Made by a program: the position numbers and the translations under genes. From an uncultured Spirochaetota bacterium (GTDB lineage: Bacteria > Spirochaetota > Spirochaetia > SZUA-6 > Fen-1364), in the NCBI GenBank assembly GCA_963781885.1, contig CAWAHW010000001.1, positions 160,001 through 224,000 on the forward strand: 64,000 bases of DNA, read 5' to 3'. Position 1 is the stretch's first letter; the number at the start of each line of letters is the position of its first letter. The notes beneath the pieces were generated by a model that had not been told where the DNA came from, ran no database searches, and saw nothing but the letters and a program-made list of their open reading frames with translations. Positions 8,490 to 26,482 of the stretch are shown one piece after another.

Positions 8490-8529
8490 AAAACGCCGTC
8501 CGCCTCAGGCGATGAATGGGAGCGGCTCG

Positions 8530-10284: not shown

Positions 10285-11531
10285 GCACGGCCCCCGTCCT
10301 GCGCAGCCTCGATCTCCTCGAAGAATCGGATGCAGGTGAGGAGCGCGCGCGGAATGTGGAAGCAACCCTTCCACTTCCCCCCCTTCTGCGTTGTCGACGG
10401 GTCCCCTTCCCGGTGGAGGTAGCCGAACCACTCGCCGTCGGCAGGGTCGTCGAAGCGCGCCCAGACGTAGTCGTCCACGCGGCGGAACCATTCCCAGAAT
10501 ACGGCGCGGCCGGTGATCTTGTAGGCGAGCAGGAACGCGCAGAGCGCTTCCGCGTGGACCCACCAGAGCTTCATGTCCCATTCGAGCTTTTCCGGCGGTC
10601 GGCCGTCCGCATCGAGATAGTAGAAAAGCCCTCCGAACGCCGCATCCCAGCCGCGCTCCGCCGTCCACAGCATTGCCTCGGTGACAAGGTCGACGATCGC
10701 ACGACGATCGACGGACCGGGAATCACGCTCATCGATGGGCCACGATTCCACCGCGCGCAGGACGAACCAGAGAACCTCCAGCGCGTGCCCGGGGGTGAGG
10801 AGCCGGCCCTCCATGCAGTCGGGGTGGCTGCCATCGGCGTACACGCGCTCGTAGACCGCGCGGCGCTCCCGGTCGATATGCAGCCTTGTCACCTGGTCTA
10901 TCGCTTCGCGCAGGTAACCTTCGCGCACGGCCGGCTCCACAAGATCGCCCATCTCCTGGGCAAGCCACACCTGGATCATGGGAAATGCCATGGCCATGAT
11001 CGGACGGTGGGCGGCGATCTGCTTCGTGAATCGCCCCTTGGGATTGGCTTTCCGTTCCTGGATGCGCCGATAGGTCGCCGCCGCGATCTCCCGGGCCTCC
11101 TCGTCTCCCGCCGCACGCGAGTATTCGGCCATGCCCGCCGCGGCGAAGCAGTCGGAGAAGATGTTGTACGCCTCCACCAGGGGCCGACCCGTGCGGTCCA
11201 ACGCGAAGTACCAGTCGCCCTCGGTGTTGCGGCCGTGCGCCTTCATGAACTCCACGCCCGCGCGCGCGTACTCCCGCCACGACGGCTCCGCGCGGTAGCC
11301 GGTGAAAAGCTTGGAAAACATCCAGACCCCGCGCCCCTGCAGCCACATGAACTTGTCCGTGTCGAAGATCGCTCCATCGCGCTCGAGGCAGCAGAAATAG
11401 CCTCCGTGCGCGCGATCGACCGAATGTCGCAGCCAGAACGGGAGAATGCTCTCCTCCAGGGAGCGGCGGTAGCGCTCTTTCAGGCGCGCCACCTCCGCGC
11501 GCATCGTCAATCGATCGAGGGAATCGTGCAT
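10281..11531 (-). CDS. N-acylglucosamine 2-epimerase (AGE family)
   Basis: DKFMWLQGRGVW, YNIFSDCF, PGHALE, KLWWVHAE, KGGKWKGCFHIPR. Confidence 0.9.
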   Translation of the reverse strand: MHDSLDRLTMRAEVARLKERYRRSLEESILPFWLRHSVDRAHGGYFCCLERDGAIFDTDKFMWLQGRGVWMFSKLFTGYRAEPSWREYARAGVEFMKAHGRNTEGDWYFALDRTGRPLVEAYNIFSDCFAAAGMAEYSRAAGDEEAREIAAATYRRIQERKANPKGRFTKQIAAHRPIMAMAFPMIQVWLAQEMGDLVEPAVREGYLREAIDQVTRLHIDRERRAVYERVYADGSHPDCMEGRLLTPGHALEVLWFVLRAVESWPIDERDSRSVDRRAIVDLVTEAMLWTAERGWDAAFGGLFYYLDADGRPPEKLEWDMKLWWVHAEALCAFLLAYKITGRAVFWEWFRRVDDYVWARFDDPADGEWFGYLHREGDPSTTQKGGKWKGCFHIPRALLTCIRFFEEIEAAQDGGRA

Positions 11532-11548
11532 GGGGATTGCGCCTCCGT

Positions 11549-12403
11549 CTATTTGATCGCCCCTGCCGTCAATCCCCGGATGAACCAGCGGGACATGAAA
11601 AGGTAGAGAACGAGCATGGGGATGATGGCGATGGAGAGCCCCGTGAAGAGCAGGCTCCAGTCGGTGGAGAACTGCCCGAAGAACGTGGTCAGGCCCACCG
11701 GGAGCGTCTTCAACCCGTTGCTCTGGAGGAACACGAGCGGGAAGAAAAAGTCGTTCCAGAGCGGCACCGCGTTGTAGATCGTCACGAGCGCGATGGCGGG
11801 CGTCGTGACGGGCATGACGATGCGCCGGTAGATGCCCCAGTCGTTGCAGCCGTCGATGCGCGCGGCGTGCTCCAGCTCCAGGGGTATCGAGCGCATGAAG
11901 CCCGACAGGATGAACACGGTCGACGGCAGGCCCATGGCAAGAAAGATCAGGACGATCGCCGCCCGGGTGTTCATCAGGCCCAGGCCCTTGATGAGCATGA
12001 AGAGCGGGATGATCGCCGCCTTCAGGGGCAGCATGATGCCGCTGAGGAAGAGCATGAAGATGAAGGTGCGCAGCTTGTAGCGGTAGCGGCCGACGCCGTA
12101 GGCCGCCATCGATCCCAGCAGGAGAACGAAGGCCATGGAGATCAGCGTGACGATGAGGCTGTTGGCGAAGTAGCGGCTGAAGCCCCTGTCGATCCAGACG
12201 ACCCTGTAGTTGGAGAGCACGATGTGGATGGGAAGCGCAAAGGGGTGCTGGAAGATTTCCCGCGTCGTCTTGAACGACGAGACGATCATGTTGAAAAGCG
12301 GGTAGAAGATGAGCAGGGCATAGAGGGCCATGAGGAGCTGGGCGGCGGAGAGGACGATCGCCCGCCCGGGGCCCGCGCCGCGGAACCGCAGGTCGGTGGT
12401 CAC
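11549..12403 (-). CDS. Carbohydrate ABC permease
   Basis: EHAARIDG, WNDFFFPLV, GLTAGAIK. Confidence 0.9.
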   Translation of the reverse strand: MTTDLRFRGAGPGRAIVLSAAQLLMALYALLIFYPLFNMIVSSFKTTREIFQHPFALPIHIVLSNYRVVWIDRGFSRYFANSLIVTLISMAFVLLLGSMAAYGVGRYRYKLRTFIFMLFLSGIMLPLKAAIIPLFMLIKGLGLMNTRAAIVLIFLAMGLPSTVFILSGFMRSIPLELEHAARIDGCNDWGIYRRIVMPVTTPAIALVTIYNAVPLWNDFFFPLVFLQSNGLKTLPVGLTTFFGQFSTDWSLLFTGLSIAIIPMLVLYLFMSRWFIRGLTAGAIK

Positions 12404-13314
12404 AGCTCAACCTCGCGCGATCGGGTGGCGGCGATCGATCCGATGGAGGCGACGAAGGTGAGCAGGTAGATGACCACGCCGATCGCGCTCCCGATGCCGA
12501 TCTGGGGATTTCCCGAATCCACGGAGCCGAACGCCGTGCGATAGAAAAGGGTGCCAATCGTGTCCGTGGAATAGTTGGGCGGGCCGTCGAGCCCGGTCAT
12601 GGTGTAGACCTGCTCGAAGACGTTGAGGCTCCCGATGATCGTGAGCACGGTGATGACGGCGATCGCCGGGATGATCAGGGGAAAGACGATCTTCCAGAAG
12701 GTTGTCCATTCCCGCGCGCCATCGAGATGCGCCGCCTCCAGACATTCGCCCGGCAGGCCGTCGATGGCCGCCAGAAAGACCAGTGACGGGAAACCCACCC
12801 AGCGCCAGATATTGACGACGATGACGGAGAAGGTGGCGATCTTCTCCTCACCCAGCCACGCGTGGGTCCAGCCCGTGAGCCCGACCAGCTTCAGGAATGC
12901 GTTGACGAGGCCGTTCGGCTTCAGGTACAGCCCCCACAGGAAGCCCACGGCAACGATGGAAAAAAGCACCGGGATGAAAAAGATCCGCTTGTAGAATCCG
13001 CTCCCGGCGACCCTGCGGCTGAGAAGGTAGCCGAAGAGCAGGCCGATGCTGTTCTGCACGAGCATCGTGACGAGGAACCACTTGAGGTTGTTGCCCAGGG
13101 CGCCGAAAAATCGCGTCCGGTAGGGATCGGCAAGAAGGATCTTGCGGAAGTTGTCCAGCCCGACGAAGCCGCCCCGGATGAGCTGCTGCCAGTCGAAGAG
13201 GCTGTTGAAGAGCGAGACAAAGAGGGGCAGGAGGATGAAGACGCCCACGACGGCGAGCCCCGGAAGCACAAAGAGGGTGATCCACAATCCCTTGCGGACG
13301 TCGGCTCTCGTCAT
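12400..13314 (-). CDS. Carbohydrate ABC permease
   Basis: EAAHLDGA and TM helices. ATG at 13314 follows AAGGGAGG. Confidence 0.9.
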   Translation of the reverse strand: MTRADVRKGLWITLFVLPGLAVVGVFILLPLFVSLFNSLFDWQQLIRGGFVGLDNFRKILLADPYRTRFFGALGNNLKWFLVTMLVQNSIGLLFGYLLSRRVAGSGFYKRIFFIPVLFSIVAVGFLWGLYLKPNGLVNAFLKLVGLTGWTHAWLGEEKIATFSVIVVNIWRWVGFPSLVFLAAIDGLPGECLEAAHLDGAREWTTFWKIVFPLIIPAIAVITVLTIIGSLNVFEQVYTMTGLDGPPNYSTDTIGTLFYRTAFGSVDSGNPQIGIGSAIGVVIYLLTFVASIGSIAATRSREVEL

Positions 13315-13342
13315 GGATGCCCTCCCTTCTGCGGAAAATGAA

Positions 13343-13371
13343 CGGGGCGGCGCGCCACGGCCGCCGCCCCG
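13343..13371 (-). terminator. GC-rich stem-loop after the binding-protein gene (partial terminator or mRNA stabiliser)
   Basis: CGGGGCGGCG/CGCCGCCCCG 10-bp stem, followed on the minus strand by TTCATTTT. Confidence 0.55.
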
Positions 13372-13387
13372 CGGATTGCCGGGCAGG

Positions 13388-14632
13388 CTACTTCTTGAAG
13401 GGAGCGTAGTACGTTGCGATCCCGTCCTGGATCTGCTTCGCGACGTCCGCCGGCGTGAGCGTTCCGGCAAACATGCCCTGAAGCGCCGCCTGCGCGAGCG
13501 TGGATCCGGTGGGCTGCTGGTAGCGGAAGCCCACGAGGAAGACGTACGGGGTCTCGTATTTCTGGAAGGAGAGCACCTTCGAGATGAAGGGATCCGCGGT
13601 GGTATCGACGCCCGGCACCACGGAGACCTGCTTGAGGCTCTTGATGAAGAAGTCGCCCGTCGCCTTGCTCGCGAAGTAACGCAGCAGCTTTGCGGCAGCG
13701 GCCTTGTTCTTCGATGCCGCGTTCATGCTGAAGTTCCCGTCGGCATACGTGGAAACGTACTGCGGGTCGCCCGCCTTTGCCGCGGGTCCGGGGAACACGT
13801 CGAGCTGCAGGTCGGGGTTCTGGGAGAGGAAATAGCCCGCCTCGAAGGAGCCGCCGATGAAGTGGCCGGCCTGCTCATTGATGAAGGAGGTCTGCATGTC
13901 GGTGTAGCTCACGCCCATGTAGAGATTCGGCAGGTAGGGAATGAGGTCTTTGAGCTTGCCGATCGCGTTCACGAAACGGGCATCCTGGAAGTTCGTCTGT
14001 CCCTTCACCACGGCGTTGAAGTAGTCATTGGCGCCGTAGAAATTGGGGCAGAGCGCTCCCAGCATGACCTCGAGGGTCCACCCATCCTTGGCGCCGTTGG
14101 CCAGGGGCTGGATGCCCGCCTTCTTCATCGCGTCGAGATTGGAGAGGAACTGGGCCCAGGTGGCAGGCGGCTTCAGTCCCAGCTTCGCGTACATCTTCTT
14201 GTTGTAGTAGACGAAAAGGGTCTGGCTGGCGAAAGGCACGCCGTATATCTTGCCGTCCTTGATCGACGTGGCTCCGCGCAGTGGCGCCGAGGCGAACCCC
14301 TTGAGCTCGGGCACCCACTGTTCCAGCGGCTCCAGGTAGCCGGACTGCGCGAATGTCTCCAGCCCGCCGTAGGCGCGGCTCTGGAACACATCCGGTCCCG
14401 CGCCGCCGCTCAGCGCCGCGGAGAGGATCGTGTTGTATTCCGTGTTCTTCTGCGCGGTCTGGACAACCTGGATGTCGGGGTTCAGCTTCTGGAAATCCGC
14501 CAGGAGCTGGTTGTACTTGTCCACGTCCTCGGGCCGCCAGGTCCAGTACTGGAGGGTCGTCTTCTGGCCGAAGGCGAGACCCGCGATACCAAGAATGAGC
14601 AAAGACGCGAGGAAAATCTTCCGTCCGTTCAT
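13388..14632 (-). CDS. Carbohydrate ABC substrate-binding protein
   Basis: Signal peptide, GPDVF, YGVPF...YYNKKMY. SD AGGAGG. Confidence 0.9.
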   Translation of the reverse strand: MNGRKIFLASLLILGIAGLAFGQKTTLQYWTWRPEDVDKYNQLLADFQKLNPDIQVVQTAQKNTEYNTILSAALSGGAGPDVFQSRAYGGLETFAQSGYLEPLEQWVPELKGFASAPLRGATSIKDGKIYGVPFASQTLFVYYNKKMYAKLGLKPPATWAQFLSNLDAMKKAGIQPLANGAKDGWTLEVMLGALCPNFYGANDYFNAVVKGQTNFQDARFVNAIGKLKDLIPYLPNLYMGVSYTDMQTSFINEQAGHFIGGSFEAGYFLSQNPDLQLDVFPGPAAKAGDPQYVSTYADGNFSMNAASKNKAAAAKLLRYFASKATGDFFIKSLKQVSVVPGVDTTADPFISKVLSFQKYETPYVFLVGFRYQQPTGSTLAQAALQGMFAGTLTPADVAKQIQDGIATYYAPFKK

Positions 14633-14736
14633 GGCTTCCTCCTGAGGCTTCCAGAGTGGCGTCGCCCTCCGAAGATGTCAAGTTGGACCGCCTCCGCCTC
14701 CTTCACGCGACGCGCGTTCTTCCGTATAGTGCCCCT

Positions 14737-15932
14737 GTGTCCTCCTCGGAAGAGCCCGATTCATTCATAATCGAAGGTGGCGAGGTCGTTCTCCCCGATC
14801 GCGTGATCAGGAACGGGGTCCTTCTTGCAAAGGGCGCAAAGATCCTCCACGCCGGACTGGCGCAGAAGCTGCCCCTTCCCCTTCCCGCCGGCTGTCGGCG
14901 CATCGATGCGCAGGGGGCGATCGTGTGTCCGGCGCTTTGGGAGCAGCACATACACGGCTGCGGCGGGATCAGCACGGAGGGGATGAGCCCCCGGTCGCTG
15001 AAAGAGATGGCGCGCTTTCTCGCCCGGCGCGGCGTCGGCGCCTTCCTTCCCACAACCGTCCCGCTCGAGGAATCCCTCTCGCTGTTGGGGGAGGCGATGG
15101 AGGCCACGGCGGGCGATCCCGACATCGCCGGGAGGATCCCGGCATCTCCGTGGAGGGTCCATTCGTCGCCCCGTCGCGTCGCGGGGCCATACCGGAAGGC
15201 CTCCTGCGGCAGCCGTCGCCCGCCTACCTTCAGCGTATGATCGCCCTTTGCCGGGGACACATGAAAATGCTCACCTTTGCACCCGAGCTGCCGAACGCGC
15301 GGGCGCTGCTGGACCCGCTCCGTGCTTCCGGCATCATCCCCTTCCTCGGGCATTCGGGAGCCGCGTTCACCGATCTGGCGGGCTACGAATCCATTTCCCC
15401 CCTGGGCGTCACGCATCTGTGGAACGGAATGAGCGGCGTGTCCCACAAGGAGCCGGGGCTCGCGCTCTGGGCCCTGCTGGACCGTCACGCCTTCACGGAG
15501 ATCAACTGCGACGGCACGCACGTCGACGATGCCGCGGTACAGCTCGTGCTTCGCACCCGTCCCGGGGAGAAGCTCATCGTCATCTCCGACGCCATAGCGC
15601 CGGCGGGCCTGGCGCCGGGCGGCGCGCCGTCCTTCCTGTATGGCAGGCGCCTGGTCGAGAAGGGCAGCGGCCTGTACGACGAAGACTCCGGTACGCTTGT
15701 CGGGTCGCGATCCCTGGTCCCGGACTGCCTCGTGCGGCTGGTGCACGATCTGAACGTGCCGCTTGCATCCGCGGTGAGCATGGCAACCTTGAATCCTGCC
15801 CGTCTCCTGGGCTACCCCTGCAAGGGCGCCTTGCTTCCCGGCTACGATGCCGACGTGGCCATCCTGAGCCGGGATTTCGCCCATTGCTCCTTCATGAGCT
15901 GGGAGGGGAGGCCTCTCTTCGAAGAGCCGTAG
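14737..15932 (+). CDS. nagA: N-acetylglucosamine-6-phosphate deacetylase; frameshift at ~15140; start uncertain (14656 or 14737)
   Basis: HIHGCGG, FLPT, EGPF, FAPEL, GHS, THLWNGM, DGTHV, ISDA, ATLNPA. Confidence 0.85.
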
Positions 15933-15935
15933 TGG

Positions 15936-17336
15936 TTACGGGACCGCCCGGTAGGTGCCGTCCGTCAGGTTGATGTCGATATTGTTGTCCGCGTGCGGCG
16001 GCTCGCCCTTCCACATCCCCTCGATCACGTCCTTCTTCATCGCGATCGCAAGCGATCCCATGAGGCTCAGGTTCTTCGTGGGATACATCTGCGTGCCCGT
16101 GAAATGCGCGTCCCCGGCGTAGTGCGCGAGCCCCGCCTCGGTGAGAGGCTCGGCGATGGTGTCCGCCTCCGCGCGGGAGATGCCGTAGCCCATGAGCACG
16201 CTTTCGATGTACGGGAACATTCCCTTGCGCGAATAGTCGCGCGCAAAGGCGGGGAAGCCCTCCGGCATCTCGGGAAGCGATTCAATGTGGAAGCTGCGCA
16301 CCTGCATGAGCTGGTCGGCGCCGATCTGCACGAGCCGGTACGGGCAGGGATAGGTGACGAGCGACCCGGTCTCGATGTCGTAGAGGAAACGGGGGCTCGG
16401 GGGCTCGCTCTTCGCGTCGCGGGCATCCCACCACGCACCGGCGATGTTCTGGGCGTGGAAGTGACCGGTGAAGACCGCGCGCACGCCGTCGTCCGCGAGC
16501 ATCAGGGAAAACGCGTCGTTGTCCTGCACGACGTACGCCGCGAACTGCTTCTTCTGCCCCGGGAAATGCTCCACCACCCCGTGGTGCATCATCACGATGA
16601 CGGCCTTGTTCTCCGCGCGGGCCCGCGCGAGGATCTCCTTCGCCCAGGCGAGCCTCTCCGGGGTGAACGATCCAGCGGTATGCTCGTGCTTCTCCTTTGC
16701 GCTGAGGTCGTAGCGGCAGGCATCCAGCGCCAGAAGCCACAGCCCGGGCGCGGGTTCCACGACGTAGGCAAGGGAGTTGGGGTCGCGCGCGATCGCCGCG
16801 TCGTAGCCGAAGTCGCGGTAGATCTCGGCAAAGCGCGCGGGGGTCACGTTGGGAATGCGGGAGGTCGTGTCCCCGTCGTACCGCACGGACTCGGGGTTGT
16901 TCACGTCGTGATTGCCCGGGATCACGAAGACGGGGATGCCGGCGGCCTTTATCCTTTCCAGCGCCGCGGCAACCGCGAGATGGACAGCCTCTTCCCCGTC
17001 CTTGCTGAGATCCCCGGGGACGAGCACGAAATGGGGCTTCGCCTCGATGATCTTGTCGATCACCGTATTCAGCAGGCTCACGCTGTGCTCGAAAATCTTC
17101 CTGTCGTCGAACTTGATCTTCTCAAAGGCGGGCTGCCCGATGCCCAGCTCGGGCAGGAAGATGTGCGGGTCGGAGAAGACGGCGAAGCTCGTCTCGGGAT
17201 AGGCGGGGAAAGGGCCTGTCGCTTTCTCCGCGCGGAAGCTCATGCTCGAGCATCCGGCGATAAGGAGCACTGCGAGTATCGCGAGGATCGCGGCGCGCAG
17301 CGCGATTGCGTGACGTCTGGTTGTCGCTGTCTTCAT
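15936..17336 (-). CDS. Calcineurin-like metallophosphoesterase lipoprotein
   Basis: Lipobox IAGC. Motifs DPH, GDLS, GNHD, MHH, GHFH. Confidence 0.85.
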   Translation of the reverse strand: MKTATTRRHAIALRAAILAILAVLLIAGCSSMSFRAEKATGPFPAYPETSFAVFSDPHIFLPELGIGQPAFEKIKFDDRKIFEHSVSLLNTVIDKIIEAKPHFVLVPGDLSKDGEEAVHLAVAAALERIKAAGIPVFVIPGNHDVNNPESVRYDGDTTSRIPNVTPARFAEIYRDFGYDAAIARDPNSLAYVVEPAPGLWLLALDACRYDLSAKEKHEHTAGSFTPERLAWAKEILARARAENKAVIVMMHHGVVEHFPGQKKQFAAYVVQDNDAFSLMLADDGVRAVFTGHFHAQNIAGAWWDARDAKSEPPSPRFLYDIETGSLVTYPCPYRLVQIGADQLMQVRSFHIESLPEMPEGFPAFARDYSRKGMFPYIESVLMGYGISRAEADTIAEPLTEAGLAHYAGDAHFTGTQMYPTKNLSLMGSLAIAMKKDVIEGMWKGEPPHADNNIDINLTDGTYRAVP

Positions 17337-17446
17337 GGGCTTTCCTTTTTCCAGGATGCGCCGAGAGTAGCAGGATGTACGTGATCGCGCAACAGCGCTG
17401 CGCGGACCCCGGCAGTTCTCCTTTTGGGCCTTAGCATGAAAACTTC

Positions 17447-17501
17447 TTGACATTTGGGAATCCATCGCCTAATAATCGTTATTGTAAGACAATCTTACAA
17501 T
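17447..17501 (+). promoter_or_regulatory. Sigma70 promoter with a palindromic GntR-type operator
   Basis: TTGACA at 17447-17452, TAATAAT at 17470-17476, ATTGTAAGA-CAA-TCTTACAAT at 17481-17501. Confidence 0.7.
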
Positions 17502-17563
17502 TCATGAAGTGCCGTCCAAAGTTTCATGGGCTCTAGTGGCGGGTATGATCGAGGGGTGGAGTC

Positions 17564-19195
17564 ATGAAACCTGTTACACGAAAAACCCTGGCATCTCTCA
17601 TCGCGGAGCAGATCAGGGCCGAAATCGTCCGGGGGAATCTCAAGGCTGCTCAACGCCTTCCCAGCGAGGCGGAGCTGAGCGCGGAGTTCAATGTCGGCCG
17701 GCCCACACTGCGGGAGGCCCTTCGCATCCTCGAGGGCCAGGGATGGGTCCAGATCAAATTCTCCACCGGTGTTTTCGTTTCCGATCCCGAGAATCTCGCG
17801 GACCGCATGTCCTCGTACTACGGCAAGGAAGGAATACGGGACCTCCTGGATTCCGAGCTCGCCCAGCTCCAGCACGAGGGCAGGGAGGTGCCTGCCTCCG
17901 CCAGAACCGATCTTCTCCACCTGCAGGAGGACGGAAAGCTGCGGGAGATCGAAGAGCTGGTGGAGAAACTGCAGAAGCTCCCGGCATCGTCCAGCTTCTC
18001 CTACGTGGAGCCGACGACGCTCGCCGACATACGATCCGCCCGACAGGCCGCCGCGGAAGCGCCGGACAAGCGTGACAGGGTGGCCGATCTGAGGGATCGC
18101 ATCCACGGCGGCCTGCTGGGCCGCTGCATCGGCAGCCTCCTTGGCACGCCGGTCAATGGGTGGACCGCGAACGCCATCGAGCAGTATCTGCGCGCGATCG
18201 ATCGCTACCCCCTGACGGGTCTCATGCCCTACGCCCCGAACGAGGTGGCGCGCGGCCAGTATTCATTCCTCGGAGCCGAAGCGCAGTCCGCGCCCGTGCC
18301 CCCGCGGGGCCTCCTGCGCGGGGTCGAGCCGGAGTTCGCCATCCTCAACGACACGATCATCAGCCTCAAGGTGATGCAGCTCCACGGGTGGGATTTTTCT
18401 TCCGAGGACGTCGGCGAGGAGTGGCTTTCTTCCCTTCCCTACCGGACGACGCTCACCGCGGAAAGACAGGCGTACGGAAACCTCGTGCGGGGCCTCTCCC
18501 CGCCGGCCACCGCCACGATCCTCAATCCCTTCCGCGAATGGATCGGCGGCACCGTGCGCGCCGACCTCTACGGCTACGTCTGCCCGGGCGACCCTGCGCT
18601 GGCGGCGATGCTTGCCTTCCGCGACGCAACCGTTTCCCATACGAAGAACGGCGTCTACGGCGCCATGTTCGTGGCCGCTGCCATCGCCGCGGCGTTTGTC
18701 GCACAAAGCGCGGAGGAGATCGTCACGGCGGGCATGGGCCAGATCCCGCAGCGCTCCCGGTTGTGGGAGCTTCTGTCCCAGGTCGTGCAGTGGTGGAAGG
18801 ACGGAACGGAGTGGCAGGTTTCCGTGGCGCGCATCGAGGAGCGCTGCGCGGACTACCGGCGGCCGCACGTGCTGCCCAACGCGGCAAGAATCGCCGTCGG
18901 CGTCCTGCACGGGGGCCTGGACGTCCGCGCGACGATCTGCACGACCGTCATGTGCGGGAACGACCCGGACTGCAATGCCGGCGCTGCGGGCTCCATCATC
19001 GGCGTGCACGCGGGCGCCCGCGGCATTCCCGACGATTTCCGGCACGCCGTCGGTGACCGGCTCCCGAGCGCCGTGCTCGGCTTTCACGAGACGAAAATCA
19101 GCCTGGTGGCGGAAATGGCGGAAAAGATCGCGGCCTCCCGTCCGGGCGAGGGACGCGAGACGGTCAAGCCGGCGCGCGATGCGAAACGGATCTGA
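17564..19195 (+). CDS. GntR winged-HTH fused to an ADP-ribosylglycohydrolase-fold domain
   Basis: LPSEAELSAEFNVGRPTLREAL, then GLLGRCIG...NPFREWIG..RADLYG..DATVSHTKNGVYG..DPDCNAGAAGS. Confidence 0.85.
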   Translation: MKPVTRKTLASLIAEQIRAEIVRGNLKAAQRLPSEAELSAEFNVGRPTLREALRILEGQGWVQIKFSTGVFVSDPENLADRMSSYYGKEGIRDLLDSELAQLQHEGREVPASARTDLLHLQEDGKLREIEELVEKLQKLPASSSFSYVEPTTLADIRSARQAAAEAPDKRDRVADLRDRIHGGLLGRCIGSLLGTPVNGWTANAIEQYLRAIDRYPLTGLMPYAPNEVARGQYSFLGAEAQSAPVPPRGLLRGVEPEFAILNDTIISLKVMQLHGWDFSSEDVGEEWLSSLPYRTTLTAERQAYGNLVRGLSPPATATILNPFREWIGGTVRADLYGYVCPGDPALAAMLAFRDATVSHTKNGVYGAMFVAAAIAAAFVAQSAEEIVTAGMGQIPQRSRLWELLSQVVQWWKDGTEWQVSVARIEERCADYRRPHVLPNAARIAVGVLHGGLDVRATICTTVMCGNDPDCNAGAAGSIIGVHAGARGIPDDFRHAVGDRLPSAVLGFHETKISLVAEMAEKIAASRPGEGRETVKPARDAKRI

Positions 19196-19254
19196 AGCAA
19201 TGGAATGCACATCATCGGTGCGGGGATGAACCCCGCCGGAAGAAGGAGGAAGAG

Positions 19255-20541
19255 ATGTCCGAAACAGTGAATGTCCGGGGCAGACAGGACAGGGGGGCTC
19301 CCCAGATCCTGCCTGCCCGTGCGCAATCCGACCTGATCACGGAGCTGGTGAGAAACCGACTCGATACGGTTCTTCCCGTTGCCATGAAGGAGGCGGGGCT
19401 CGACATGTGGATCATCCTCAGCCAGGAGGACGACCTGGACCCCCTCTACAAGACGATGGTTCCGATGGACTGCTGGAACCCGATCCTCCAGATGCTCGTC
19501 TTCGTCGACGAGGGCAACGGAAAGATCAGCCGGTACAGCATCTCGGGGACCGATACGAAGGACCTCTACGAGCGTCCCTACATCGGACAGCTGGAGGAGA
19601 AGCAGTGGCCGGTGCTCCTCGACCTGGTAAACAAGCGGGACCCGAAGACCATCGGGGTGAATATCGGATCGGTGGCATGGGCGGCCGGCGGGCTCACGCA
19701 CTTCCTCTACAAGCAGCTTGAGGAAAAGCTCCCACAGAAGTACGCGAAACGCCTGGTCTCCGCGGAGAAAGCCGCCGTGCGCTGGGGTGCCTGCCTCACG
19801 GATCGGGAGATCGATCTTTTCCGGCACGTCGTGGAGATCGCCCACGGCATCATCGCCGACAGCTTCAGCCGGATGACGATCACCCCCGGGGTGACCACCG
19901 TGGACGACCTGGTGTGGTTCTACTGGCAGCGCTCCATCGATCTGGGCCTCGAGCTCTCCTTCCGGCCCTATTTCCGTCTCATTCGAAGCGACGCCGCCAT
20001 CCAGCTCCATGGCGCCAATGACAAGGTCATCAGGCCCGGGGACGCCATTCACAGCGACGTGGGCATCAAGTACCTTCGGATGAACTCGGACAACCAGCAC
20101 ATCGCTTACGTTCCCCGGAGGGGCGAGACGGATGCCCCTGCCGGGCTCAAGGCGCTCATGGCGCAGACCAACAGGCTGCAAGACATCTTCATGAGCGAGT
20201 TCAAGGTGGGCATCTCGGGCAATCAGCTTCTGCAGAACATCCTGAATCGGGCTCGGCGCGAAGGGATCGGCATGCCCCGGGTCTACTCCCACTCACTCGG
20301 GCTCTTCCTCCACCAGCCGGGACCCCTCATCGGCCTGCCGTGGGAACAGGAGAAGCCCCTGGCCCGTGGCGAGGTCCTGATGCAGCACAACTATGCATTC
20401 ACCATGGAGTTGAGCACGGATGGGCCGGTGCCGGAGTGGAACGGCCAGACCGTCAGATGCCCCATGGAGGAGCCGGTCGTGTTCACAAAGGAAGGCTGCA
20501 TGACGTTGAAGGGTCGGCAGACCGAGTTCTACTTGATATGA
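19255..20541 (+). CDS. M24-family (Xaa-Pro aminopeptidase-like) metallopeptidase
   Basis: PGVTT, and metal ligands in SDVG, SDNQH, HSLG..H, MEL and EE. SD AGGAGG. Confidence 0.8.
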   Translation: MSETVNVRGRQDRGAPQILPARAQSDLITELVRNRLDTVLPVAMKEAGLDMWIILSQEDDLDPLYKTMVPMDCWNPILQMLVFVDEGNGKISRYSISGTDTKDLYERPYIGQLEEKQWPVLLDLVNKRDPKTIGVNIGSVAWAAGGLTHFLYKQLEEKLPQKYAKRLVSAEKAAVRWGACLTDREIDLFRHVVEIAHGIIADSFSRMTITPGVTTVDDLVWFYWQRSIDLGLELSFRPYFRLIRSDAAIQLHGANDKVIRPGDAIHSDVGIKYLRMNSDNQHIAYVPRRGETDAPAGLKALMAQTNRLQDIFMSEFKVGISGNQLLQNILNRARREGIGMPRVYSHSLGLFLHQPGPLIGLPWEQEKPLARGEVLMQHNYAFTMELSTDGPVPEWNGQTVRCPMEEPVVFTKEGCMTLKGRQTEFYLI

Positions 20542-20549
20542 GCTTTTGC

Positions 20550-20600
20550 TTGACATCCGCCATTGGGCATGATTGTATTATTGTCAGACAATAATACAAT
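20550..20600 (+). promoter_or_regulatory. oppA promoter with a 29-bp palindromic operator
   Basis: TTGACA at 20550-20555. ATTGTATTATTGTC-A-GACAATAATACAAT at 20572-20600 has perfect 14-bp arms. Confidence 0.75.
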
Positions 20601-20649
20601 TTAGAAAACAACCCACGGACGTGGGAAAGCAAGGAAAAGGAGGAGTAGC

Positions 20650-22290
20650 ATGAAAGATTTCAAGACCAGATGGGCACGCATTGCGGTTTTCGCGATCGTG
20701 TTCATGGTGGGCGCGAGTGCCGTATTCGCGGCTGCGCAGAAGATTCTGTATCTGCCCGCCGACGCGGAGTTCGACAATCTCGACCCGCGGGTGTTGACGT
20801 CCACCATCCAGCAGCTCGTGCAGTTCGGCATTTTCGAGCCGCTCGTGCGCACGCACGACGGTCAGCTCCTGCCCGGCATGGCGAAGACCTGGGAGGAGTC
20901 CAAGGATGGAATGACCTATACCTTCCATCTCCGGGATGCCAAGTGGTCCGATGGAAAAGCGGTGACGGGCGGCGACTTTGTGCACGCGTTCGTGCGCATG
21001 TTCCAGATCTGCCCGGCAAGTCCCATCTATGACGACATCAAGAACGGAGCGGAGCTGCGCGCGGGCAAGGTGCAGCCGGCCGACCTCGGCGTGAAGGCGC
21101 CGGACGACAAGACGGTGGTCATCACCCTGAAGAACCCCGCTCCCTACTTCATGGGCCTCATCGCGAGCTCCTTCGGCGCGCCGGGCCGTGAAGACCTCGT
21201 CGCCAAGTACGGCGATGCCTACGGCGCGAGCGTCGACTCGCTGGCCAGCAATGGCCCCTTCATCCTCAAGGAATGGAAGAAGGACGACAAGATCGTGATG
21301 GTGAAAAACCCCAACTACTGGAACGCGGGAGCCATCAAGCTGGACCAGGTCGTCGTCTACGTCCTTCCCACCCCCCAGACCCAGCGGAATCTCTTTGACA
21401 GCGGGCAGCTCGACATGTATCTCCCCCGCGCCGAATCCGAGGCCAAGGATTACCAGGCAAAGGGCCTCCTGAGCTTCTTCGTACGCGGCGGGATCCGCGA
21501 CCTGCAGATCAACCGGCACGGCCAGAATGACCCCGTGAAGGCGAAGATCCTGAGCAATGTGAACTTCATGAAGGCCATCTCCTACGCCATCGACCGGCAG
21601 GGCTACGTGGACAACGTTCTCCAGGGAGCCGGCTACCCGGCCACCGTGCAGACGCCCCCCGGGACCGGCGTCTACCCCGGAAAGACCTGGGGCCAGGTGA
21701 GCACGAATATCGGCAAGTACCATCCCGTGAAGGCGGACCTGGCGAAGTCCAAGGCATACATGGATCTCGTGCTGAAGGACAACGGGTTCACCTCGGTGGA
21801 CCAGCTCCCGACGTTCGACTTCCTGACCTCGATCGGGCCCGACGATCCCAAGGACGTCACCGGTTACCTGCTGGGCGTCTTCAAGCAGATGGGCCTGAAG
21901 ATCAACGTGAAGCTCGCGACGGGCCAGCAGTTCTACAACAACCTGTACAAGCCCGCCCTCGCCTGGGACATGTGCCGCGCGGGGTGGGGCCCTGACTTCG
22001 ACGACCCGGCGACGTACATGGGCTACTGGGTCACCGCGTCCACCGACATGGGCGTGACCTATGAGAATGCCCAGTTCGATACTCTGTTTGCAAAGGCCAA
22101 CATGGAAACCGACCTCGTGAAGAGGGCTGTAATCCTCAACCAGGCCGAGGCCTTGTTCTCCGACAATGCGCCGTGCATCCCCATTACGTGGTATAAGGGT
22201 GAGATCGCGCTGTCGGCGCGCGTGAAGGGCTTCACGACCGCCATCACCGGACTGACGACGGACTATATCTTCGCGGACGTCACCAAGTAA
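20650..22290 (+). CDS. oppA: Peptide ABC transporter substrate-binding protein
   Basis: Signal peptide, YTFHLRDAKWSDG, SNGPF, KNPNYW, GWGPDFDDP. Confidence 0.9.
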   Translation: MKDFKTRWARIAVFAIVFMVGASAVFAAAQKILYLPADAEFDNLDPRVLTSTIQQLVQFGIFEPLVRTHDGQLLPGMAKTWEESKDGMTYTFHLRDAKWSDGKAVTGGDFVHAFVRMFQICPASPIYDDIKNGAELRAGKVQPADLGVKAPDDKTVVITLKNPAPYFMGLIASSFGAPGREDLVAKYGDAYGASVDSLASNGPFILKEWKKDDKIVMVKNPNYWNAGAIKLDQVVVYVLPTPQTQRNLFDSGQLDMYLPRAESEAKDYQAKGLLSFFVRGGIRDLQINRHGQNDPVKAKILSNVNFMKAISYAIDRQGYVDNVLQGAGYPATVQTPPGTGVYPGKTWGQVSTNIGKYHPVKADLAKSKAYMDLVLKDNGFTSVDQLPTFDFLTSIGPDDPKDVTGYLLGVFKQMGLKINVKLATGQQFYNNLYKPALAWDMCRAGWGPDFDDPATYMGYWVTASTDMGVTYENAQFDTLFAKANMETDLVKRAVILNQAEALFSDNAPCIPITWYKGEIALSARVKGFTTAITGLTTDYIFADVTK

Positions 22291-22315
22291 GGCGCCGCAC
22301 GCAGTATGAGCGAAC

Positions 22316-22341
22316 GAGGCCGGGTCGCGGGACCCGGCCTC
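22316..22341 (+). terminator. Stem-loop between oppA and oppB
   Basis: GAGGCCGGGTC-GCGG-GACCCGGCCTC followed by TCTT. Confidence 0.55.
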
Positions 22342-22409
22342 TCTTCATCCCTCAAAGTCAAAATGAAAGTCGGTGAGACCCGGGGTTCCATCCCCGGGGA
22401 AGGACGGGT

Positions 22410-23330
22410 ATGGCACGCTATATTCTGAATCGCGTCCTTGTCGCGATTCTCACGATGTTTGTCCTGGCGACGACCACCTTCTTCCTCATGCGGCTGGTGC
22501 CCGGCGACCCCATGGCCGGGCCCAAGGTGACACCGGAGGTGAAGGCGATCCTCCGCAAGCACTACGGGCTGGACAAGCCCCTGATGGAGCAATACGTCAT
22601 CTACATGGGCAATCTCCTGCGGGGGGACTTCGGCTGGTCCATGGCCAAGCGCGGCAATCGCGTGAACGACATCATCCGTGACGCCTTTCCCGCCTCCCTG
22701 GACCTCGGCGTCCGGTCGATGATCGTCGCCATCATCATGGGCCTCTTTTTCGGGATCGTCGCGGCCCTCCACCGGGGAAAGCCCATGGACTACCTCACGG
22801 TGATCCTCGTCCTGGTCGGCATCTCCGTGCCCAGCTTCGTCGTTGCCGGCCTGCTCCAGTATTTCTTCGGCGTCTACCTCCACGTCCTGCCCGTGGCCCG
22901 CTACGACAACTGGAAGGCGACGCTCATGCCGACATTCGCCCTGAGCCTCGGCACGATGGCCACCCTTGCCCGCTACATGCGCGCGAGCATGCTGGAGATC
23001 GTCAACGCCGACTACATCAAGACGGCAAAGGCCAAGGGATTGAGTCGTCTGCAGATCGTCATGCGCCACCAGGTGCGCAACGCCCTGTTCCCGATCCTCA
23101 CCATCCTGGGTCCCGCCATCGCCATGGTGCTCACGGGGTCCTTCATCATCGAGACGGTCTTCGCCATCCCCGGCCTGGGCCGGCACTACGTGAACGCGAT
23201 GCAGAATCTCGACTACACCCTCATGCTGGGCCTCACGCTGTTCTTCGGTTTCTTCCTGATCGCGATGAATCTCCTGGTGGACTTCGCCTACGGGCTGATC
23301 GATCCCCGGGTCCGGCACACGCGGGGATGA
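22410..23330 (+). CDS. oppB: Peptide ABC permease
   Basis: YIKTAKAKGL, ETVFAIPGLG, DPRVR. Confidence 0.92.
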   Translation: MARYILNRVLVAILTMFVLATTTFFLMRLVPGDPMAGPKVTPEVKAILRKHYGLDKPLMEQYVIYMGNLLRGDFGWSMAKRGNRVNDIIRDAFPASLDLGVRSMIVAIIMGLFFGIVAALHRGKPMDYLTVILVLVGISVPSFVVAGLLQYFFGVYLHVLPVARYDNWKATLMPTFALSLGTMATLARYMRASMLEIVNADYIKTAKAKGLSRLQIVMRHQVRNALFPILTILGPAIAMVLTGSFIIETVFAIPGLGRHYVNAMQNLDYTLMLGLTLFFGFFLIAMNLLVDFAYGLIDPRVRHTRG

Positions 23331-23340
23331 GGAGCGTGCC

Positions 23341-24258
23341 ATGAGCGAGCTGCCGCGGGAGATGTTCACACCGCTCGATCGGGCGGAAAAGGCCGGGCTG
23401 AAGACGGAAACCGAGACGATCGCGTTCTGGAGCGACGTCTGGCGCCGGTTCCGCAGGAACAAGGCGGGCATGGCGGGAGTGGTGATCGTCCTCCTCTTCG
23501 TGATCCTCGCGATCGTCGGCCCGTCGCTCGTGCCCTTCAAGTTCGACCAGATCGACCTGACGTCCACCTACGTCCTTCCCGGACGCGCGCACTGGTTCGG
23601 CACCGACCTCCTGGGCAGGGACATCTGGGCCGAGCTCTGGGTGGGCGCCCGCGTCTCGCTCCTGATCGGCGTCGTCTCCGCGCTGAGCCAGATGGTCATC
23701 GGCACGATCATCGGCTCCCTCTCCGGCATCTATGGCGGCAAGGTCGACATGATCATCATGCGCGCCGTGGACATCCTGATCGCGGTCCCCTTCCTGATCT
23801 GGGTGAGCCTCTTCATGCTCGTGCTGAAGCCGGGCATACAGTCCATCATCCTCGCCTTCTCCATCACCGAATGGAAAGGCATGGCGCGCCTCGTGCGTGG
23901 CGAGGTCCTGCGCCTGAAAGAGACGGAATACGTCCTGGCAAGCAAGGGCATGGGGGCTTCCACCTGGCGCCTGATCACGAAGCATTTCTTTCCCAATCTC
24001 CTCCCCGTGGTCACCGTCTCCGTGACATTCCAGGTCACCGCCGCGATATTCGGCGAGGCGTTTCTGAGCTACATCGGCCTGGGCATCCAGCCGCCGCTCA
24101 CCTCATGGGGGGTCCTGATCGCGTCAGGGATCAACGAGATGCGCTCCTACACCTACATGCTCTTCATACCGGCGGTCTTCATCAGCCTCACGATGCTGTC
24201 GCTGCAGCTCATTGGCGACAGCCTTCGCGACGCCACCGACCCGAAGCTCCGGCAGTAA
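23341..24258 (+). CDS. oppC: Peptide ABC permease
   Basis: HWFGTDLLGRD, EAFLSYIGLG, GDSLRDATDPK. Confidence 0.92.
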   Translation: MSELPREMFTPLDRAEKAGLKTETETIAFWSDVWRRFRRNKAGMAGVVIVLLFVILAIVGPSLVPFKFDQIDLTSTYVLPGRAHWFGTDLLGRDIWAELWVGARVSLLIGVVSALSQMVIGTIIGSLSGIYGGKVDMIIMRAVDILIAVPFLIWVSLFMLVLKPGIQSIILAFSITEWKGMARLVRGEVLRLKETEYVLASKGMGASTWRLITKHFFPNLLPVVTVSVTFQVTAAIFGEAFLSYIGLGIQPPLTSWGVLIASGINEMRSYTYMLFIPAVFISLTMLSLQLIGDSLRDATDPKLRQ

Positions 24259-24271
24259 GGGGCGCGCGAAG

Positions 24272-25297
24272 ATGCCACAGGAAAAGCTTCTCGAAGTGCA
24301 GAATCTCACGATCTCCTTCCACACGTTCGCCGGCGACGTCTCGGCCGTGCGCAACGTGGACTTCGACCTGCGCCCGGGCGAGGTGATCGCCATCGTGGGG
24401 GAGTCGGGGAGCGGCAAGAGCGTCTCCACGCAGGCGATACTCGGGCTCACGCCGATTCCCCCCGGCGAGATCAAGAGCGGCAAAATCCTTTTCAAAGGGG
24501 AGAACCTGCTCACCTGCAGTGCCAGACGCCTGAGCGAGGTGAGCGGCGCGCAGATTTCGATGATCTTCCAGGACCCGATGACCTCGTTGAATCCCACGAT
24601 GAAGGTGGGAAACCAGATCCGGGAAATCCTCCACCAGCACGCGCGGCTCACCCGGGCGGAAAGCGCGGAGCGGGCCATGGAGCTCATGAATCTCGTCGGT
24701 ATCCCCGAGCCCCGGGTGCGCCTGGGCCAGTATCCCCACGAGTTCTCGGGCGGCATGCGCCAGCGCGCCATGATCGCCATGGCAATGGCCAATCGCCCCG
24801 AGATCCTCATTGCCGACGAGCCGACGACGGCGCTCGACGTCACCATCCAGTCGCAGATACTCCGGCTGCTGCGCGAGCTGCAGCGCGACTTTCACACGGC
24901 CATCATCCTCATCACCCACGACCTCGGCGTGGTTGCGGGCATGGCGGACCGCATCGTGGTCATGTACGCGGGCAGGGTCATGGAGGAAGGCACGACCGAC
25001 CAAGTCTACTATCGCCCCCACCATCCCTATACGGCCGGTCTGCTCCAGGCCGTTCCGAGCCTCGCGGATGACGAGCGGAAAAAGCTGCGCACCATCGAGG
25101 GCACGCCGCCCTTCCTTCTCCATGTTCCCCCCGGGTGCCCCTTTGCCGAGCGTTGCGACTATTCGATGCGCATCTGCAAGGAAAAGGAGCCGCCGTACCA
25201 CCATCCCGAGGCCGGCAACCGGGTCTTCTGCTGGCTCTACGACGAGGGTGCATCGGATCAGCGCGCGCGATTCGCGGCAAGGGAAGTGGCGCAATGA
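24272..25297 (+). CDS. oppD: Peptide ABC ATPase
   Basis: GESGSGKS, YPHEFSGGMRQR, DEPTTALDVT, C-terminal Cys cluster. Confidence 0.92.
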   Translation: MPQEKLLEVQNLTISFHTFAGDVSAVRNVDFDLRPGEVIAIVGESGSGKSVSTQAILGLTPIPPGEIKSGKILFKGENLLTCSARRLSEVSGAQISMIFQDPMTSLNPTMKVGNQIREILHQHARLTRAESAERAMELMNLVGIPEPRVRLGQYPHEFSGGMRQRAMIAMAMANRPEILIADEPTTALDVTIQSQILRLLRELQRDFHTAIILITHDLGVVAGMADRIVVMYAGRVMEEGTTDQVYYRPHHPYTAGLLQAVPSLADDERKKLRTIEGTPPFLLHVPPGCPFAERCDYSMRICKEKEPPYHHPEAGNRVFCWLYDEGASDQRARFAAREVAQ

Positions 25298-26250
25298 CGG
25301 CAAAGATCCTGGAGCTTCATCATCTCCAGAAGCATTTCACCCTGAGCAGGGGACGGGTGCTGAAGGCCGTGGAGAACATCGACCTTGACATCTACGAAGG
25401 GGAGACCTTCGGGCTGGTCGGAGAGTCGGGCTGCGGAAAGTCCACGCTGGGAAGGACCATCAAAGGCATCTACGAGCCCACGGCCGGCCAGATCCTTTAT
25501 AACGGAAAGGATACCGCTCACATGGACGGCCAGGAGCGCAAGCTCTACCGCCGTGATTTACAGATCATCTTCCAGGACCCCTACTCATCGCTCAACCCCC
25601 GCATGACGGTGAAGGAGCTGATCGCCGAGGGGCTGGAGATACACGGTCTGGGCACGAAGGAAGAGCAGAAAGAAAGGGTCTTCGAGACGCTGAAGCTCGT
25701 GGGGCTCAGCCCCGAGTACGTGACGCGCTTCGCGCACGAGTTTTCCGGCGGCCAGAGACAGAGGCTTGCCATCGCGCGCGCGCTTGCCGTGAGGCCGCGC
25801 TTCATCGTCTGCGATGAGCCCATCTCCGCGCTGGACGTCTCCATCCAGGGGCAAATCGTGAACCTCATGAAGGACCTGCAGCGAGAGCTCGGCCTCACGT
25901 ACCTCTTCATTGCCCATGACCTGTCCATGGTGAAGTACATCAGCGACCGCGTCGGGGTGATGTACCTGGGAAGACTGGTGGAGGTCGCCGACAAGGCGGA
26001 GCTTTTCGCCAATCCGCAGCATCCCTATACGCAGGCTCTGCTGTCTTCCATCCCGATCCCCAATCCGAACATCGAGCGGCAGCGGAAGGAGATCCCCATC
26101 GAGGGGGAGATCCCCAGCCCCCTTGAAAAAATCGACGGCTGCAGCTTCAAGACGCGCTGCCCTTTCGCAGTGGCAAAATGCGACACCATGGCCTACGAGC
26201 TTCGGGACATCGGCAACCAGCACGTCGTGATGTGCACGAAGTTCCAGTAG
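25294..26250 (+). CDS. oppF: Peptide ABC ATPase
   Basis: GESGCGKS, FSGGQRQR, DEPISALDVS. ATGA overlap. Confidence 0.92.
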   Translation: MTAKILELHHLQKHFTLSRGRVLKAVENIDLDIYEGETFGLVGESGCGKSTLGRTIKGIYEPTAGQILYNGKDTAHMDGQERKLYRRDLQIIFQDPYSSLNPRMTVKELIAEGLEIHGLGTKEEQKERVFETLKLVGLSPEYVTRFAHEFSGGQRQRLAIARALAVRPRFIVCDEPISALDVSIQGQIVNLMKDLQRELGLTYLFIAHDLSMVKYISDRVGVMYLGRLVEVADKAELFANPQHPYTQALLSSIPIPNPNIERQRKEIPIEGEIPSPLEKIDGCSFKTRCPFAVAKCDTMAYELRDIGNQHVVMCTKFQ

Positions 26251-26321
26251 CCGCGCGTCGCTTTCCCTGGGCCCCTTGACGCTTGACCCCCCGCGCTCCC
26301 TGGTGTAAGTTCGTGAAGGTT

Positions 26322-26408
26322 ATGAACGGAAAAGGCTTGCAGACACGGCTCGCGCTCCTCGTCGTCGTACTCGTACTTTCGGGAGGCACCGCCGTGTGTG
26401 CACCGTAG
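26322..26408 (+). CDS. ilvB leader peptide MNGKGLQTRLALLVVVLVLSGGTAVCAP (28 aa)
   Basis: Read manually. A Leu/Val codon run lies between the promoter (TTGACC 26283, TAAGTT 26306) and the terminator. Confidence 0.8.
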   Translation: MNGKGLQTRLALLVVVLVLSGGTAVCAP

Positions 26409-26429
26409 GCTGGTCAAGCGAATTGACAC

Positions 26430-26468: not shown

Positions 26469-26482
26469 CCGAAGGAGGGGTC

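Follow-up and report, generated by a model that had tools for sequence, protein, structure and literature searches.

The window analysed here is a stretch of 64,000 nucleotides of DNA from an uncultured Spirochaetota bacterium (contig CAWAHW010000001.1, positions 160,001 to 224,000), and the gene in question encodes a predicted one-component regulator, protein P0001, in which a GntR-type winged helix-turn-helix (wHTH) is fused to an ADP-ribosylglycohydrolase (ARH) fold. Genes for an M24-family peptidase and an OppABCDF-like importer follow it, and candidate operators were located before the regulator gene and before oppA (Table 1). The fusion, the residue losses, selection, operator conservation and co-occurrence, and synteny were assessed from sequence; the fold and the dimer were assessed from models.

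Table 1. Features of the regulator locus, with positions in the window.
Feature	Position	Strand	Basis
Sigma70-type promoter-like site of the regulator gene, TTGACA-18 nt-AATAAT	17447..17476	+	11/12 consensus matches
Candidate operator 1: perfect inverted repeat, 9-nt arms, 3-nt spacer, with TTGT-N3-ACAA	17481..17501	.	Repeat search
GntR-wHTH/ARH-fold fusion gene (P0001), 543 aa	17564..19195	+	Single open reading frame, Pfam, AlphaFold2 model, structure alignment
GntR/FadR-type wHTH, residues ~8-73	17585..17782	+	Pfam PF00392, PDB sequence matches
Helical N-terminal extension, residues ~88-174	17825..18085	+	Common to stand-alone ARH subfamily members
ARH fold, residues ~172-527	18077..19144	+	Pfam, structure alignment
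N198 at the catalytic Glu position (ARH3 E41; E of DraG GATVE)	18155..18157	+	Profile alignment to DraG
F258-A259-I260 replacing DDD (classical TDD; ARH3 MgA ligands T76/D77/D78)	18335..18343	+	Alignment
Predicted homodimer interface, residues 285-295 and 304-310, with 87-88	18416..18493	+	Model only
H359, retained His of the ARH TH motif	18638..18640	+	Aligned to TH of MJ1187; 12/12 clade members
D467-P-D469-C470, retained MgB ligands (ARH3 D314/D316)	18962..18973	+	Profile alignment on DraG DADT
M24-family metallopeptidase	19255..20541	+	PF00557, E 7.4e-10
Perfect TTGACA (-35-like) upstream of oppA	20550..20555	+	Conserved in L001
Candidate operator 2: 29-bp palindrome with perfectly matched 14-nt arms, TTGT-N4-TTGT-N3-ACAA-N4-ACAA	20572..20600	.	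Before oppA
OppA-like family-5 substrate-binding protein	20650..22290	+	Pfam and PDB matches
OppB, OppC, OppD, OppF-like permeases and ATPases	22410..26250	+	Pfam; same order in L001

The fusion open reading frame (ORF) comprises 543 codons without an internal stop. PF00392 (GntR) was matched at residues 12-72 (E 1.8e-18, 66.4 bits versus a cut-off of 27) and PF03747 (ADP_ribosyl_GH) at residues 182-490 (E 3.5e-38, 132 bits), each above its curated cut-off. Neither FCD nor UTRA was among the domains listed in the Pfam scan of P0001 (limit for FCD, E 0.01). The Pfam architecture and the single ORF agree with the original prediction of a GntR/FadR helix-turn-helix (HTH) joined in frame to a full ARH protein in place of FCD or UTRA. 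NanR and PdhR were the top PDB sequence matches of the HTH, and the best among the shorter full-length relatives were FadR/FCD regulators. With NCBIfam, the best 25 of 28 matches covered the N-terminal region only and lay far under their cut-offs. The fold was modelled with AlphaFold2 from a 61-row alignment (mean predicted local distance difference test score (pLDDT) 80; below 50 at residues 239-254). The superposition proposed with the original prediction aligned residues 172-526 of the model to ARH3 (Z 30.0, root-mean-square deviation (rmsd) 3.3, 298 residues aligned) and to DraG (Z 26.0, rmsd 3.5, 286 aligned), and residues 8-78 to a FadR-type wHTH (Z 13.3, rmsd 0.8, 69 aligned), FadR/NanR wHTHs being matched at Z about 13. 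To judge by sequence conservation, residues ~88-174 are a conserved N-terminal extension of the subfamily and no free linker: E98, Q101, E105, G106, E149, P150 and I156 are each conserved in 84-99% of 243 HTH-less members. Since this extension also occurs in the stand-alone subfamily, the fusion amounts to a wHTH set on a whole ARH protein of ~440 aa. The model also matches the ARH-fold chains PDB 8xks_Q, 8xqw_G, 9hny_FP and 6sga_FP (Z 20-29), which by their entry titles belong to a chloroplast import motor and to complexes of mitoribosome assembly in trypanosomes; ARH-fold chains in such complexes are possible further non-enzymatic uses of the fold.

For residue comparisons, 358 ARH sequences, near-duplicates included, were aligned; 11 were removed for less than 85% core coverage and 347 were kept. 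P0001 belongs to a degenerate clade of 13 rows (P0001-P0012 and the protein of L001, the closest GTDB locus). In P0001, which contains the motifs LGTPVNG (193-199), EPEFAILND (255-263) and DPDCN (467-471), the columns of ARH3 E41, D77 and D78 are occupied by N198, A259 and I260, and the proposed loss of the N-terminal metal carboxylates was thereby upheld. Glu stands at the N198 column in 331 of the 334 rows outside the clade and in none of the 13 inside; the DDD columns hold Asp in 327-329 of the 334 outside rows, the two at the D77 and D78 positions in 329; the first of these two holds Ala in ten clade rows and Gly, Glu or Ser in the rest. The C-terminal DPDCN was found retained as predicted, with D467 and D469 kept in 13/13 clade rows. 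The motifs that had been taken as usual, LGxPVEG and xDDD, are indeed those of this ARH subfamily, whereas solved ARHs read GDALGxxxE and TDDT at these places. The subfamily DDD was aligned on the TDD of MJ1187 by profile alignment, and FAI was matched to DDD without a gap by hmmalign and in one MAFFT run; the loop alignment is ambiguous for P0010-P0012.

Compared with the subfamily, the clade is changed at C191, K195, E198, D258-D260, Y263, A329, Q330, T468, N471 and T474, and it keeps T298-A-E300, N321, R324, E325, W326, R332, D334, S358-H359, N362, H435, N439, D467 and D469. As read from these columns, inactivation is selective: the surroundings of the first metal are altered, whereas the clade retains the MgB ligands and the other pocket residues. 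Of the features of active ARH/DraG enzymes, P0001 lacks the catalytic Glu and the MgA-binding TDD of the N-terminal part and has the C-terminal DxD. In ARH3, T76/D77/D78 bind MgA and D314/D316/T317 bind MgB; the D77A variant loses MgA and activity, yet binds ADP-ribose with a dissociation constant (KD) of 0.06 versus 1.42 μM, and in D314A the KD is weakened to 62.9 μM (PMC8141533). ARH3 is crippled by any one of the substitutions E41A, T76R, D77N and D78N; the E41A variant still binds ligand (PMC8319183). The residue pattern of the clade would be that expected for a binder without catalysis, and the ARH domain is very probably inactive as an enzyme. The ARH3 T317 column holds Cys in P0001 (C470), as in 286 of 334 subfamily rows. 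A second subfamily Cys, at the ARH3 D34 column (304/334 rows), is lost in the degenerate clade, P0001 having S191 there; the Cys residues at these two columns may point to a different metal or redox chemistry in the subfamily.

HTH labels were assigned by using profiles made here, and Pfam confirmed those among the 30 proteins scanned. A GntR HTH was present in 72/347 rows (57 with an intact site, the 13 of the degenerate clade, one truncated, and P0129, altered), a LacI HTH in 9/347 (metal site intact in 9/9) and an XRE HTH in 13/347 (intact in 12/13); 253 rows lack an HTH, and 246 of these are intact. The three HTH types are unrelated, so the ARH subfamily, which is widespread in sugar operons of bacteria and archaea, has been recruited at least three times. 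The suggestion that disabling of the enzyme gave rise to the sensor role was not supported, because the five carboxylates are kept in most fusions of every type (57/72 GntR, 9/9 LacI, 12/13 XRE) and four intact-site loci have the same operator as the window. In an IQ-TREE phylogeny of 37 rows selected from the 347, with the main N-terminal trait columns taken out, the degenerate clade received support of 100/100 and was nested among intact GntR fusions at 92/95, from which it follows that the fusion came first and inactivation later. Twelve clade members compared span 50-86% identity. All GntR fusions were monophyletic with FastTree (Shimodaira-Hasegawa support 0.977); IQ-TREE did not settle the placement of P0128 and P0129. 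When the clade alignment was used as a search profile, none of the best 120 of 339 matches was a further member of full length; the fragment P0279 has the C-terminal motif of the clade. L001 is a Spirochaetaceae metagenome-assembled genome locus with the same 543-aa gene (86% identical to P0001) and the gene order kept. The ratio of nonsynonymous to synonymous substitution rates (dN/dS) for this one pair was 0.09 in the ARH domain, 0.058 in the HTH and 0.06-0.13 in every segment, which suggests, for a single pair, that the degenerate clade is under purifying selection.

P0129 is a second GntR-ARH protein with a like loss (Glu to Cys, DDD to DYP, DxD kept). Its independent inactivation was not established, as grouping with the clade was not rejected by the approximately unbiased test (p 0.376). 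LacI-HTH fusions (P0075, P0085, P0086, P0088, P0114, P0142, P0152 and L060:4948-6555) looked polyphyletic, a single origin also being possible; in P0157, a LacI fusion with an intact site, the ARH domain stands behind a complete LacI repressor. XRE-HTH fusions included P0110, P0113, P0118, P0119, P0174, P0181, P0184, P0215, P0231, P0239, P0249 and P0263. ARH is fused to IU_nuc_hydro in P0195 and to a PfkB kinase in P0243. The HTH-less proteins P0064-P0069 and P0071 fall within the GntR clade; P0064-P0068 begin at an internal Met after the HTH and are probably truncated gene calls. Fourteen phage records were matched, none over more than 80% of the query, and the eight matches listed cover the HTH end only.

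The promoter-like site of the regulator gene was the sole match in 17200-20700 (shuffle mean 0.4), and both of its hexamers are conserved in L001. Candidate operator 1 lies directly downstream of the -10 hexamer; L001 has the same 19-nt core (start 9891) between diverged flanks. When the window was searched with the pattern of 17481-17501, two sites were found versus 0.02 expected. The second site, before oppA, is candidate operator 2, the longest of only three palindromes in the window with arms of at least 9 nt and a loop of at most 3 nt, and it is conserved in L001 with a single change beside the centre. The -10 element of the oppA promoter is weak and was not called in the promoter scan. 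The candidate operators stand at or beside promoter elements and are, by computation, of the palindromic GT-Nx-AC type of the GntR family. Exact TTGT-N4-TTGT-N3-ACAA was present within 250 nt upstream of 6/6 GntR-ARH genes for which 100 nt or more of preceding sequence was available, and in none of 75 HTH-less ARH genes (best, two mismatches) and not in the one LacI-ARH gene; in the 1.18 Mb scanned, the only other exact copies stand before oppA, in the window and in L001. The window-derived pattern was also matched, with 2-3 mismatches, upstream of two fusion genes with intact sites, those of L002 and L004. The core fits the FadR-subfamily consensus TKGT/ACMA, in which GT and AC are 3 nt apart (PMC4494728). 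Assignment of the operator to the amino-sugar cluster upstream or to a second GntR gene at 49035 was rejected, neither having an exact motif, and no Rfam match at gathering score was obtained in 14000-29000 that would suggest a riboswitch or other RNA control.

The regulator gene is separated from the M24 gene by 59 nt, and the two are probably co-transcribed. The M24 protein is 97% identical and syntenic in L001 and had no PDB sequence match; its residues D268, D279, H346, E385 and E405 fit what we take to be the M24 metal ligands. The best PDB matches of the OppA-like protein were the peptide binders OppA/DppE (E 1e-54 to 1e-46), followed by chitooligosaccharide binders (E ~1e-12). The regulator itself, the M24 peptidase and the OppABCDF-like importer form the probable regulon, as predicted from sequence; together with the conserved putative operator, this extends the original prediction of a candidate one-component regulator.

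In a two-copy model of residues 6-505, a score of 0.54 was obtained versus 0.00 for the best control; of 30 proteins solved as pairs, 20 reach the mark set for this dimer score, as does 1 of 23 solved as single chains. The model runs had a contact agreement of at least 65% and a pLDDT of at least 80. The model thus lends support, short of proof, to dimerisation through the C-terminal domain, as in the GntR family. The predicted interface flanks the conserved TAER loop and contacts residues 87-88, where the HTH joins, and would offer a route from the pocket to the DNA-binding head. Between 88% and 98% of stand-alone members share W287, P292 and Y304. The parent stand-alone enzymes may already be dimers, and perhaps for this reason HTH domains were recruited repeatedly.

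Neighbour scans for the ligand question covered 87 proteins; 74 of 84 multi-locus cluster representatives; and 68 proteins at a selected subset of 79 loci. Stand-alone relatives lie near ribokinase/PfkB genes (L037, L074, L082, L083) or a nucleoside hydrolase (L038). Other neighbours of relatives were sugar ATP-binding cassette (ABC) systems, glycoside hydrolases, ROK kinases, NanE, AGE and Gfo/Idh oxidoreductases, and many others were housekeeping or unrelated genes. No ADP-ribosyltransferase, sirtuin, macrodomain or NAD-salvage family was seen among the scanned neighbour proteins. Ahead of the GxxxR motif the whole subfamily has R324-E325-W326, in columns that we take to correspond to S148/Y149/G150 among the adenosine-binding residues of ARH3 (F143/S148/Y149/G150). 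In ARH3, S148A or G150E cripples the enzyme (PMC8319183). The R-E-W segment and the sugar and ribose neighbours together make a ribosyl or glycosyl conjugate likelier than a protein ADP-ribosylation signal. No characterised substrate of the parent ARH subfamily was found. A small glycosyl, most likely ribosyl, conjugate as the ligand class stands at even odds, and a peptide-linked form, suggested by the Opp/M24 context in two related genomes, is a guess.

We favour, with a probability of roughly 60%, the reading that P0001 is a dimeric repressor of its own gene, the M24 peptidase and the Opp importer, with the dead ARH pocket as the route of induction. It would be a homodimeric repressor in a branch of the GntR family, with the ARH-fold domain as effector-binding and dimerisation module. 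The wHTH would bind TTGT-N3-ACAA sites to which TTGT/ACAA half-sites are added with a spacing of 8 bp, one by its own promoter (regulator and M24 peptidase) and the other ahead of the genes for the Opp importer. The ARH domain would be derived from hydrolases of sugar/ribose catabolic operons and, having lost the MgA ligands along with the catalytic Glu and kept the MgB ligands and the other pocket residues, would bind a small glycosyl conjugate and not cleave it. This ligand would plausibly be linked to an amino acid or a peptide and imported by the Opp system; its binding next to the dimer interface would free the DNA, and uptake and peptidase would be induced. Among the parts of this reading, repression by the GntR-ARH protein is very probable, and ligand sensing through the ARH pocket is likely. 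A wider scenario is offered tentatively, with the odds against it: a single, dimer-prone ARH subfamily would have been recruited at least three times as a sensor, most fusions being active and cleaving their own inducer, and the degenerate clade would have become a pure sensor through loss of the catalytic metal only, reporting a so far unrecognised salvage of Opp-imported, M24-trimmed ribosylated or ADP-ribosylated peptides.

Several observations weigh against the repressor reading. The degenerate clade was seen in two genomic contexts only, both closely related and spirochaete-like, and the Opp/M24 link may be local; the three intact fusions for which downstream DNA was available (L004, L005 and L006) are followed by family-1 sugar ABC systems, in L004 together with a rhamnosidase-family hydrolase. 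The genes called in the window include no second ARH, so that the neighbourhood lacks an enzyme for the proposed ligand. The operator count of 6/6 is partly circular, because the 19-nt consensus was written with those six upstream regions already seen, and the six genes represent about three lineages (window/L001, L002/L004 and L005/L006). The nesting node (92/95) lies just under the starred threshold. Another MAFFT run put a gap in the FAI loop instead of matching it to DDD, although the acidic residues needed by such an alignment are not conserved in the clade (E255 is E/D/A/H and E257 is E/Q/A). Finally, the conserved Tyr is replaced by D263 in 10/13 clade rows, and by Asp or His in 12/13; D263 could be a substitute metal ligand, in or near a poorly modelled loop (pLDDT below 50 at 239-254).

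The strongest competitor to induction by a glycosyl conjugate, itself unlikely, has free ADP-ribose (or a peptide that is ADP-ribosylated) as the effector, the protein being an ARH-fold counterpart of NrtR. The original prediction had named ADP-ribose or a related conjugate; the regulator part of that proposal gained support, and ADP-ribose became just one candidate in view of the R-E-W segment, at what we presume to be adenosine-binding positions of ARH3, and of the sugar, ribose and nucleoside neighbours, among which the families expected of ADP-ribose signalling were missing as described. In its favour, the TH-motif His is retained, the lost and retained residues match the ARH3 variant with the tightest ADP-ribose binding (PMC8141533), NrtR is a precedent for a dead hydrolase that senses ADP-ribose (PMC4666351), and ARH genes occur in ribose-scavenging loci, B. 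thetaiotaomicron being able to use ADP-ribose (bioRxiv 10.1101/574913). The fold does not fix the ligand, however, as AraR of the NrtR family moved from ADP-ribose to arabinose (PMC4666351).

Somewhat less likely again, the ARH domain no longer binds a sugar conjugate and serves as a dimerisation scaffold, or its pocket has been re-tuned to a peptide, amino-acid or metal signal in keeping with the Opp/M24 regulon. This would suit a regulon content unlike that of the intact fusions, the alteration of about 20 subfamily-conserved positions in the clade, the conserved surface of the predicted dimer, and the ARH folds that are subunits of unrelated complexes (8xks_Q and 9hny_FP, by entry titles). 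However, the polar residues E300, R324, E325, H359, N362, H435, D467 and D469 are kept in 12/12 members and have no obvious scaffold role. A remodelled but active hydrolase, that is, a bifunctional enzyme-repressor in which D263 or nearby acids replace the lost ligands, is improbable: three essential carboxylates are gone together where single losses already cripple ARH3, and E255 and E257 vary within the clade. In its favour stand the Asp or His at the Tyr column in 12/13 rows and the intact site of most relatives, which may well be bifunctional. An artefact can be dismissed even though every record comes from environmental assemblies, as a join of two genes or a frameshift is excluded by the uninterrupted ORF, the GntR fusion in 72 of 347 full-length ARH domains and the same 543-aa gene with synteny in an independent genome, and a decaying pseudogene by the low dN/dS in every segment.

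Regulators of the NrtR family, including BtAraR, are likewise one-component repressors that combine a wHTH with a hydrolase fold with impaired catalytic carboxylates, and they sense ADP-ribose or a sugar (PMC4666351). They have an N-terminal Nudix domain and a C-terminal wHTH, whereas P0001 has an N-terminal GntR wHTH and an all-helical ARH domain; by analogy, P0001 would work like NrtR, and it is no member of that family. FadR, PdhR and NanR resemble it in wHTH sequence and structure and in the TKGT-N3-ACMA operator core. The FadR subfamily differs in its FCD domain of 150-170 aa, in place of which P0001 has an ARH protein of ~440 aa with a C-terminal region matching ARH structures at Z 24-30, and in lacking the extra operator half-sites at 8-bp spacing. 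Assignment to HutC, MocR, YtrA, AraR or PlmA fails too, the C-terminal region being taken up by the ARH domain where these have a UTRA, aminotransferase, short two-helix or LacI-type domain; the N-terminal winged HTH is that of the GntR family, and the fold that of the ARH/DraG superfamily. None of the six GntR subfamilies (FadR, HutC, MocR, YtrA, AraR, PlmA) given in PMC4494728 has an ARH domain. MocR and AraR also carry a GntR wHTH on an unrelated fold (aminotransferase-like and LacI-like, respectively; PMC4494728), with fold and effector unlike those of P0001.

ARH3, ARH1, DraG and Tri1 share the fold (Z 24-30), the C-terminal DxD and the TH-motif His; the subfamily differs from them in Asp-to-Cys (D34 column), Thr-to-Cys/Ser (T317), R-E-W and the N-terminal extension, and the P0001 clade in the loss of the E41/T76/D77/D78 equivalents and in the fused HTH. 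ARH2 (ADPRHL1) likewise has the ARH fold, altered metal motifs and no shown activity (PMC9738213), but is a vertebrate muscle protein without a DNA-binding domain. In E. coli, the GntR repressor GgaR (YegW) controls yegTUV, encoding a transporter, an ARH (YegU) and a kinase, in response to ADP-glucose (PMC10819704); in that system, unlike in P0001, one gene encodes the regulator and another the ARH. Systems centred on an ARH, with a Nudix or WYL regulator as a separate protein, have also been described (PMC9503650). No paper on an HTH-ARH fusion was found in a literature search conducted mostly outside subscription journals and supplements. The fusion itself is already on record, as automatic JGI names carry the GntR + ARH two-domain architecture; no publication was found on the operator, on the selective inactivation or on the repeated recruitment of HTH domains. 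P0001 looks like a GntR-family member outside the six subfamilies of PMC4494728, in an apparently undescribed branch. It would give the family a new class of effector domain, with a testable predicted operator and regulon, and the natural series of stand-alone enzymes, fusions with an intact site and disabled fusions would be a model for the change from enzyme to sensor. A regulator that reports its ligand by release of DNA would also make the substrate of the ARH subfamily screenable.

Outside the predicted regulon, long ORFs without a Pfam match were noted at 28475-30379, 30840-32711, 36015-39637, 45792-48221 and 56266-57240. A copy of the operator consensus with one mismatch at 5945-5963 and a perfect GC-rich palindrome at 37501-37519 are probably unrelated. 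Upstream of the regulator, 6827-17336 holds a cluster of the amino-sugar type (sugar ABC, GKRP/MurQ-like SIS protein, GlcNAc 2-epimerase, NagA-like amidohydrolase) and a divergent metallophosphoesterase; the region is partly syntenic in L001, where an enolase-superfamily gene and a GH3 gene are inserted ahead of the regulator. On the minus strand, a histidine kinase with a LacI-type sugar-binding domain and PAS domains (32721-35915) and two tandem HAMP + adenylate/guanylate cyclase genes next to TPR proteins (42277-45590) were found. The second GntR gene of the window (49035-50048) encodes 338 aa with no recognised FCD/UTRA and a sub-threshold DUF4350 match, and it precedes a glutamate mutase/methylaspartate ammonia-lyase cluster.

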